From the NCBI RefSeq assembly GCF_965641715.1, contig NZ_OZ282459.1: a stretch of 4,779 nucleotides of DNA; one strand, 5' to 3'. A model generated the notes under the pieces. The model was not told the DNA's origin. It made no database searches and saw only the letters and a program-made list of their open reading frames with translations. Shown in pieces: positions 4,072 to 4,191 of the stretch. The stretch is from Escherichia coli (GTDB lineage: Bacteria; Pseudomonadota; Gammaproteobacteria; Enterobacterales; Enterobacteriaceae). How positions within the stretch are numbered: position 1 is the first letter of the stretch; every line of letters starts with the position of its first letter. Position numbers and translations under genes: made by a program.

Positions 4072-4191
4072 ATGAGACTGTTTAACGTGATTGAGACGGT
4101 GCTGAACTGCCTGTACATGGCGCTGGAGATCTGGGACTGGCTGGAGAAGCATTTTCCTGTTTTTAAGGCGTTCATCCGGATTCTGGCCTGA
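4072..4191 (+). CDS. Small hypothetical protein (39 aa) downstream of mbeA; possibly the ColE1 mbeE equivalent
   Basis: ATG preceded by GGAGGG SD at 6 nt spacing. Product MRLFNVIETVLNCLYMALEIWDWLEKHFPVFKAFIRILA is small and hydrophobic/amphipathic. Position between mbeA and cer matches where a small fifth mob-region ORF sits in ColE1. Assignment is from memory and unverified. Confidence 0.4.
   Translation: MRLFNVIETVLNCLYMALEIWDWLEKHFPVFKAFIRILA

Follow-up and report, generated by a model that had tools for sequence, protein, structure and literature searches.

The window analysed here, a complete ColE1-type plasmid of 4779 bp, contains a 39-codon gene between its relaxase gene and a cer-like site, which we call ORF39 (positions 4072..4191, plus strand). 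It is predicted to encode a protein of 39 residues folding as one amphipathic alpha-helix, and it appears to be part of the plasmid backbone rather than of the mob operon; it is distinct from mbeE. As reconstructed by sequence comparison, ORF39 would belong to a fixed block on the strand of RNAII and Pcer/rcd that consists of a leader stem-loop, a Shine-Dalgarno (SD) sequence, 39 codons, a TGA stop, an interval of 136-137 nt and the XerC/XerD core. We give this reading as a whole, that is, a real gene in a cer-fixed backbone block with a role in maintenance, a probability of roughly 0.55. Our best guess for the product is a weakly translated plasmid-maintenance factor.

Plasmid context

The queried segment is 100% the same as the Salmonella plasmid pR13.1986_4k (NZ_CP129389.1). 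The window carries on its minus strand a ParA-like gene (241-1125) and RNAI (1222-1324; Rfam, 95.6 bits), and with RNAI on the minus strand RNAII reads on the plus strand. The mobilization genes are mobC (2154-2474; Pfam MobC) and the relaxase gene mobA (2464-3972, stop codon at 3970-3972; Pfam Relaxase), with mbeB (3152-3637; Pfam MbeB_N) and mbeD (3641-3853; Pfam MbeD_MobD) both nested in mobA in other frames. After mobA, the order in the window is ORF39, the cer-like site and the cargo.

Several further observations were made on the window and its relatives. A run of eight G residues (2454-2461) lies at the overlap of the mobC stop and the mobA start. Near-identical plasmids are 4776-4779 bp long, 1-3 bp apart, and their annotated mobC measures 321 versus 330 nt; length differences at the homopolymer could be due to slippage or to sequencing error. 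A 61-aa ORF on the minus strand (4395-4580) is a DUF2158 domain protein in CP042623.1 and is unannotated in the RefSeq copy of the identical plasmid. The adjoining plus-strand stretch (4580-4622) gives a weak, sub-threshold Rfam match to isrD (26.7 bits, E=0.03), and its sequence, aaaagccacctcacaggtggctttt, resembles a bidirectional terminator hairpin, with the DUF2158 ORF on one side and the next minus-strand gene on the other. In two of the compared plasmids, L003 (4028-4162, minus strand) and L004 (784-942, minus strand), short CDSs within the RNAII/ori region are named 'replication initiation protein'. Since ColE1-type plasmids need no Rep protein, these labels are probably propagated misannotation.

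Conservation and coding evidence

A 39-codon ORF preceded by GGAGGG between the mob operon and the Xer site had been described from the DNA sequence of the window, and we confirm it. ORF39 starts with an ATG at 4072, ends with a TGA at 4189-4191 and encodes the product MRLFNVIETVLNCLYMALEIWDWLEKHFPVFKAFIRILA; the SD sequence GGAGGG occupies 4063-4068 on the same strand. The spacing between the two had been called ideal, which does not hold, as the gap to the ATG is only 3 nt from GGAGGG, or 4 nt from GGAGG, which is among the shortest spacings that still work. The window includes 63 ORFs of at least 25 aa, and the pattern GGAGG-N3-9-ATG was observed once versus 0.94 times expected from shuffles. 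By these sequence counts, the SD and the ORF alone would be no more than chance, and it is the comparative evidence that makes the gene real.

Searching PLSDB with tblastn revealed the ORF39 frame in 419 records, 416 of them at ≥80% coverage, with identity down to ~49%. The hosts include Enterobacter, Klebsiella, Escherichia, Salmonella, Citrobacter and others. Profile searching among 1.84 billion representative proteins added more distant copies, down to 38% identity. The ATG, the 39 open codons and a purine-rich SD are kept in 13 of 13 divergent copies, and the same TGA ends 12 of these 13. The SD is purine-rich at -12 to -3 in every lineage, while its sequence varies. In L007 the stop is lost and the product is 54 aa long, and the copy in a fourteenth locus, L013, is interrupted by ISEcp1. 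Frameshifted or extended database variants comprise L007 as well as P0085, P0086 and P0091.

In the first set of 12 copies, the variable columns are distributed over the three codon positions as 19/12/30, and pairwise omega values against ORF39 of the window range from 0.21 to 0.43 (10 of 11 computable). A second tally of variability by codon position gives 27/18/36. Pooling five phylogenetically independent pairs resulted in a pN/pS of 0.34 (Sd 53.5 and Nd 60.5, on 132 synonymous and 438 non-synonymous sites), with a synonymous excess that is significant in a binomial test (p=1.3e-8). An omega of 0.34 is only moderate constraint. Each of the alternative frames over ORF39 has stops in at least some of the 12 copies. 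Conservation and dN/dS both bear out the suggestion that this is a small-protein gene: its start, stop, length and SD are conserved to 38% identity, and we consider on these sequence comparisons that ORF39 is very probably a real translated gene.

Two overlapping minus-strand ORFs, 4009-4224 and 4047-4175, were considered as genes and rejected: among 12 relatives, stops interrupt the first in 6 and the second in 3, and the 71-aa frame of the two has a pN/pS of 1.2. Within ORF39 itself, the nucleotides of codons 16-27 are highly conserved, third positions included, and this part may also be under an overlapping constraint on the DNA or RNA itself.

The predicted protein and its family

Using the family alignment, AF2 predicts that the ORF39 product is one helix that spans residues 3-38 (mean pLDDT 84). 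A homodimer was not supported, as a linker-joined tandem reached a pLDDT of 47 in AF2. The residues M1, E8, L11, C13, L24 and F31 are invariant and N12, L14, E19, W21, W23 and L38 are nearly so. The central helix is conserved over its full length, and variability is greatest in the C-terminal residues beside the stop.

The helix is amphipathic, with a polar residue at each 3-4 positions and a hydrophobic moment of 0.27-0.42, and the GRAVY of the variants is 0.5-1.3. The best 19-residue Kyte-Doolittle window scores between 0.8 and 1.7, and in 12 of 13 variants it stays below 1.6, the usual cut-off for a transmembrane helix. Acidic residues are conserved in the helix at positions 8, 19 and 22, and E25 is present in the closer lineages only. 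The product had been described as hydrophobic or amphipathic and membrane-associated; the amphipathic helix stands, whereas the sub-threshold hydropathy and the conserved acidic residues tell against the membrane part. Judging from the sequences, a classic transmembrane helix is not supported, and surface binding to a membrane, or to a partner, is possible.

ORF39 has no match in Pfam, NCBIfam, PHROG, PADLOC or PDB sequences, and no Pfam family is found for it even at E≤1; its neighbours match MobC, Relaxase, MbeB_N and MbeD_MobD. The profile search yielded a family of only 17 clusters at 50% identity. All database names are 'hypothetical' or 'uncharacterised'. Prokka-type annotation labels it as a 'hypothetical protein', and PGAP mostly omits it and at times annotates a longer version. 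No paper that describes ORF39 was found, and queries with four conserved peptide motifs gave no match in the full-text library searched. By its sequence distribution, the ORF39 family is an orphan of narrow range, restricted to ColE1-type (RNAI/RNAII) plasmids of Enterobacterales. Databases already list it as a hypothetical protein, and nothing so far points to a new kind of system.

A DNA-pattern scan for ORF39 gave 24 loci in metagenome contigs, all of them chance matches, and only 6 loci in genome contigs. Two of these 6, on contigs from Pseudomonas and Vogesella, encode a peptide 100% identical to that of the window, the Vogesella contig having ~3x coverage, and these copies are probably carry-over. 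One cluster with an ORF39 variant (cluster 3; P0032, P0034-P0045) contains 'partial hypothetical proteins' of 74-101 aa on ~2-kb contigs from Streptomyces, Brucella and Arthrobacter. Assembly contamination by a ColE1-type plasmid is the likeliest source of these copies.

Leader RNA and expression signals

An alignment of 11 lineages, including the mob-less plasmid L018, revealed a conserved leader block upstream of ORF39 (GTGACAAACCCCACGAAGAAGGGCTC...TTTCCC; 3985..4021, plus strand). The block ends in the pyrimidine tract TTTCCC (4016-4021), which is predicted by RNAalifold and by single-sequence folds to pair with the SD. The following octamer GCTAAATA (4022..4029) provides the 5' flank and the outer arm of a leader stem-loop. 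Its AAATA is found in 12 of 12 aligned copies and the full octamer in 10 of them. The octamer is kept even where the remaining stem has been replaced, a conservation beyond the needs of pairing. It could be a recognition site for a protein or an RNase, or the U-rich tail (UAUUUAGC) of a minus-strand terminator.

The stem-loop itself has 13 bp, is arranged as ATACG-g-TCGTGATG aaaa CATCACGG-CGTAT (4027..4057, plus strand; fold and covariance model) and ends ~15 nt 5' of the ATG. The leader of the window folds with -21.2 kcal/mol (z=-4.3). A covariance model of the stem-loop, R1, located it upstream of ORF39 in 23 of the 26 sources searched; R1 has no match in ColE1 (L004, L017) or in the IS-disrupted L013. 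Paired cells make up 76.9% of the stem-loop versus 28-40% in slid controls, and five pairs are changed on both sides. In L014 and L015 the entire inner stem is replaced, GTGATC/GATCAC becoming ACTACC/GGTAGT.

An outer helix of TTTCCC with the SD is predicted in addition and reaches the AUG in some lineages. The folds pair the SD in 12 of 12 lineages, with a pairing probability that is mostly not above that of the shuffled-upstream control, and a swap test for co-evolution of this anti-SD helix was not significant (p=0.15). In the mechanism we propose, the translation of ORF39 is probably kept low by a leader structure in which the UUCCC tract can pair with the SD. On these folding models, we consider that throttling by the leader is a tenable suggestion with somewhat less than even odds.

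Neither a sigma-70-like promoter nor an intrinsic terminator was found on either strand between 3800 and 4450. The lack of a recognisable sigma-70 promoter makes it probable that ORF39 transcripts arise by read-through, from RNAII or from the mob operon. A relaxed scan detected a weak antisense promoter-like sequence, TTCAAT-15-CATAAT, across the ORF39 start codon in some lineages only. The ORF39 locus has no Rfam match.

A small helical peptide behind a structured leader raises the possibility that ORF39 is a type-I-toxin-like, membrane-active peptide, with an SD-occluding fold and perhaps an antisense RNA, that causes post-segregational or stress-linked growth arrest. The peptide is fairly hydrophobic by its GRAVY, the SD, and in some lineages also the AUG, can be masked by the stable, conserved leader, the antisense promoter-like sequence overlaps the start codon in several lineages, and the minus-strand octamer UAUUUAGC right after the stem is weakly terminator-like. 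However, the helix holds 3-4 conserved acidic residues, and 12 of 13 variants offer no 19-residue stretch that passes as transmembrane. At least four lineages lack the antisense promoter (no minus-strand match in L011, L014 and L022, and none over the 5' end of ORF39 in L008), and the promoter and terminator scan was empty on the minus strand at ORF39. Moreover, no toxin was matched in Rfam or Pfam, and high-copy ColE1 plasmids tolerate ORF39. We therefore regard a toxin as unlikely.

Relation to the mobilization genes

The original prediction had named ORF39 'mbeE-like', with a possible contribution to mobilization or exclusion; it would then be an accessory mobilization or entry-exclusion protein and a fifth mob gene. 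In the window and in most PLSDB matches, ORF39 is indeed located ~100 nt 3' of mobA, on the same strand and with no promoter of its own, and 400 of the 419 ORF39 records are typed as mobilizable. A non-essential mbeE/mobE gene located 3' of the relaxase gene has been mentioned in several papers (PMC5935869, PMC5864857, PMC9282650), and pEC34B (HQ622576) is said to carry mobE.

However, mbeE of ColE1 is a different ORF. An exact-sequence name look-up identified it as a 53-aa ORF named 'DNA relaxase mbeE' or 'mobilization protein', the product of which is MCYPWNGSVSRKYRNARWMALRWDGETMKNGSFSGLSGGNVACTLWLHRYSYG. Comparing it with ORF39 gave no BLASTP alignment at E≤100 and an hhalign probability of 0.2% with the family profile, and the equation of the two was rejected. 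Nor was a homologue of ORF39 found in ColE1 (L004) by tblastn at E≤10. The alignment shows that mbeA of ColE1 runs almost straight into cer and, with mbeA abutting cer almost directly, ColE1 has no ORF39. CloDF13, checked as a possible classic host, is also without it. The window in turn has no mbeE homologue, and its ORF 3863-3988, which overlaps the 3' end of mobA, is dissimilar to mbeE.

The ColE1 records differ in their mbeE. The gene is found at 3711-3818 in L004 and at 558-719 in the 6647-bp version of ColE1 (L017), and its product is 35 aa long in the old 6646-bp sequence versus 53 aa in the 6647-bp version. The old record is 99.2% identical to the modern 6647-bp copies, with an indel in the mbeE region. 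The mbeE frame reads through the ARG box, and its stop falls inside the -10 of Pcer (GGT TAA AAT).

The distribution of ORF39 does not follow the mob genes either. PLSDB includes MbeD in 2685 records versus ORF39 in 419, so that ORF39 is missing from ~85% of the MbeD-bearing plasmids. Conversely, the mob-less RNAI plasmids L018, L022-L029 and L061 have an intact ORF39 and have kept cer. The most divergent members of the family reside on RNAI-bearing contigs of 3.4-4.1 kb without mob genes, and the neighbours of ORF39 on mob-less contigs include Rop, an HTH protein and a VbhA-like small protein. A mob-deletion derivative, a non-mobilizable E. coli plasmid of 2402 bp, has ORF39 intact beside a mere stump of mobA. 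ORF39 also lacks an MbeD, MobC or Exc domain. Given the unrelated 53-aa ORF and the missing ORF39 in ColE1, the name mbeE has to be dropped, and a role in mobilization or exclusion is improbable in view of the mob-less carriers and the many MbeD plasmids without ORF39.

One of the mob-less plasmids with ORF39, L023, includes a YjaZ-family gene as well as a sequence that matches the sroH sRNA at full score (95.6 bits; 66-217, minus strand, and 2921-3463, plus strand), which suggests a captured chromosomal segment.

Linkage to cer

With its start 100 nt past the mobA stop and its end at 4191, ORF39 overlaps neither mobA nor the ARG-box palindrome, which begins at 4211. The features that follow it on the plus strand were located by alignment to ColE1 cer. 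These are an ARG-box-like palindrome, GGCTGCATGACCATGCAGCC (4211-4230); a Pcer-like promoter with the -35 hexamer CTGCAT (4213-4218), a 15-nt spacer and the -10 hexamer TAAAAT (4234-4239); and the XerC/XerD core GGTGCGGGCAACGGATGTTATGGTAAAT (4329..4356), 137 nt after the ORF39 stop. CTGCAT-15-TAAAAT of the window aligns with TTGCAT-15-TAAAAT of ColE1, and from what is known of ColE1 cer we take the hexamers at 4213-4239 to be those of Pcer. ORF39 ends 22 nt before the Pcer-like -35, and the homology to ColE1 cer starts ~10-20 nt past its stop. The site is thus of the cer type by sequence, with a XerC/XerD core, ~190 bp of upstream accessory DNA, an ARG box and the Pcer hexamers.

Of the 22 loci checked, the window (at 4329-4356) and 15 of the 21 others match the core pattern GGTGCG..CAA..TTATGGTAAAT. 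In all of these 16 of 22 loci, which represent three cer subtypes, the distance from the ORF39 stop to the XerC/XerD core is 136-137 nt. ORF39, Pcer/rcd and RNAII share one strand both in the window and in the mob-less plasmids. Pcer is known to lie in cer, rcd and RNAII are always co-directional, and read-through of RNAII into cer from the side on which ORF39 lies has been discussed (PMC2831885). We consider it likely that the linkage of ORF39 is with cer and the backbone, and not with mob. The adjacency of ORF39 and cer could reflect shared descent of a compact backbone that is intolerant of insertions.

We propose that the ORF39 peptide may serve plasmid maintenance around cer, in dimer resolution or in the Rcd checkpoint, rather than DNA transfer. 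It is the position of ORF39 that suggests a maintenance role tied to cer, and we put this part forward as tentative and open to considerable doubt. As cer works without ORF39 in ColE1, ORF39 cannot be essential for resolution. It is a good deal less probable that the helix is an unrecognised component of the module and, in the plasmids that carry it, a modulator of the ArgR/PepA/XerCD complex or of the Rcd-tryptophanase-indole checkpoint. In a variant of this modulator reading, a Trp/Asp-rich nascent peptide (ELWDWLEKH) with an invariant UGA end would gate read-through into Pcer.

The same geometry may be explained by a cis-acting leader ORF, whose translation, or stalling at the UGA, would tune read-through into cer and thereby ArgR/PepA occupancy or Rcd output. 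The fixed 136-137 nt to the cer core, the TGA stop, kept in 12 of 13 intact copies and placed ~20 nt ahead of the ARG box and Pcer, and the common strand with Pcer/rcd and RNAII are all consistent with such a function, and read-through into cer is a recognised control problem (PMC2831885). But a conserved central helix with a variable C-terminus is unlike the known arrest peptides, ColE1 manages without ORF39, and no terminator or attenuator alternative structure was found at ORF39, which leaves a leader ORF very unlikely.

The accessory sequence of cer is usually counted as ~180 bp, and the 3' end of ORF39 probably lies inside its outer region. That ORF39 is no gene at all, its conservation stemming from a DNA or RNA function as outer cer accessory sequence for PepA or as a structured RNA, could be argued from the last ~45 bp that fall within this extent, from the unusually conserved third positions in codons 16-27 and from the PGAP annotation of most RefSeq records, which leaves ORF39 out, but the idea has hardly any probability against the excess of synonymous changes and the 27/18/36 variability, the ATG and SD in 13 of 13 copies and the 39-codon TGA length in 12 of 13, to 38% identity, the stops in other frames in some copies, and a DNA that is most variable at the 5' and 3' ends of ORF39, unlike the pattern of a protein-binding site.

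Significance

Clinical Klebsiella, Enterobacter, Escherichia and Salmonella abound in small ColE1-type plasmids, which serve as platforms for the capture of resistance genes. To our knowledge, their backbone has been thought to be fully catalogued, with RNAI/RNAII, rom, mob and cer. ORF39 adds to this a backbone gene on hundreds of sequenced plasmids that is usually skipped by PGAP, is covered by no family database and is easily mistaken for 'mbeE'. With ORF39 tracking cer and not mob, the phenotypes of interest would concern plasmid stability, the resolution of multimers and the Rcd checkpoint, and not transfer. We know of no protein-coding component of cer. Should ORF39 act together with cer, a system that is believed to rely on host proteins and one small RNA only would have its first plasmid-encoded protein.

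Comparison with known systems

Like the type I toxins Hok, Ldr, TisB, Ibs, ShoB and DinQ, ORF39 encodes a short peptide, here of 39 aa, with a single helix and a leader that is predicted to hide the SD. It differs from them in having several conserved acidic residues and in lacking a clear transmembrane segment, a conserved antisense promoter and a family match. The Mob proteins are set apart from ORF39 by their Pfam domains, as it has no MbeD_MobD, MbeB_N, MobC or relaxase domain. With ColE1 mbeE and pEC34B mobE (53 aa), ORF39 shares its small size, its non-essential nature, its strand and its location near the relaxase-cer junction. However, ColE1 mbeE runs over the 3' end of mbeA in a different frame and on into the ARG box, whereas ORF39 does neither, and the two are distributed in opposite ways, ColE1 having mbeE and no ORF39 and the window having ORF39 and no mbeE.

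The cer/Rcd module of ColE1 is composed of a site acted on by XerCD, ArgR and PepA and of the Rcd RNA driven by Pcer. ORF39 is fixed at 136-137 nt from the core of this module and is co-stranded with it, but ColE1 cer functions without ORF39, and a functional link of the two would be inferred from position only. Rom/Rop (63 aa) is a two-helix hairpin dimer that binds RNAI-RNAII, while ORF39 is predicted as a single helix with no confident dimer model, and the absence of a Pfam Rop match indicates no homology between them. In other respects they are alike: both are small, all-helical and dispensable, and both belong to the ColE1 backbone and are found in some of its members only. ORF39 is best filed with such small accessory genes of the ColE1 backbone.
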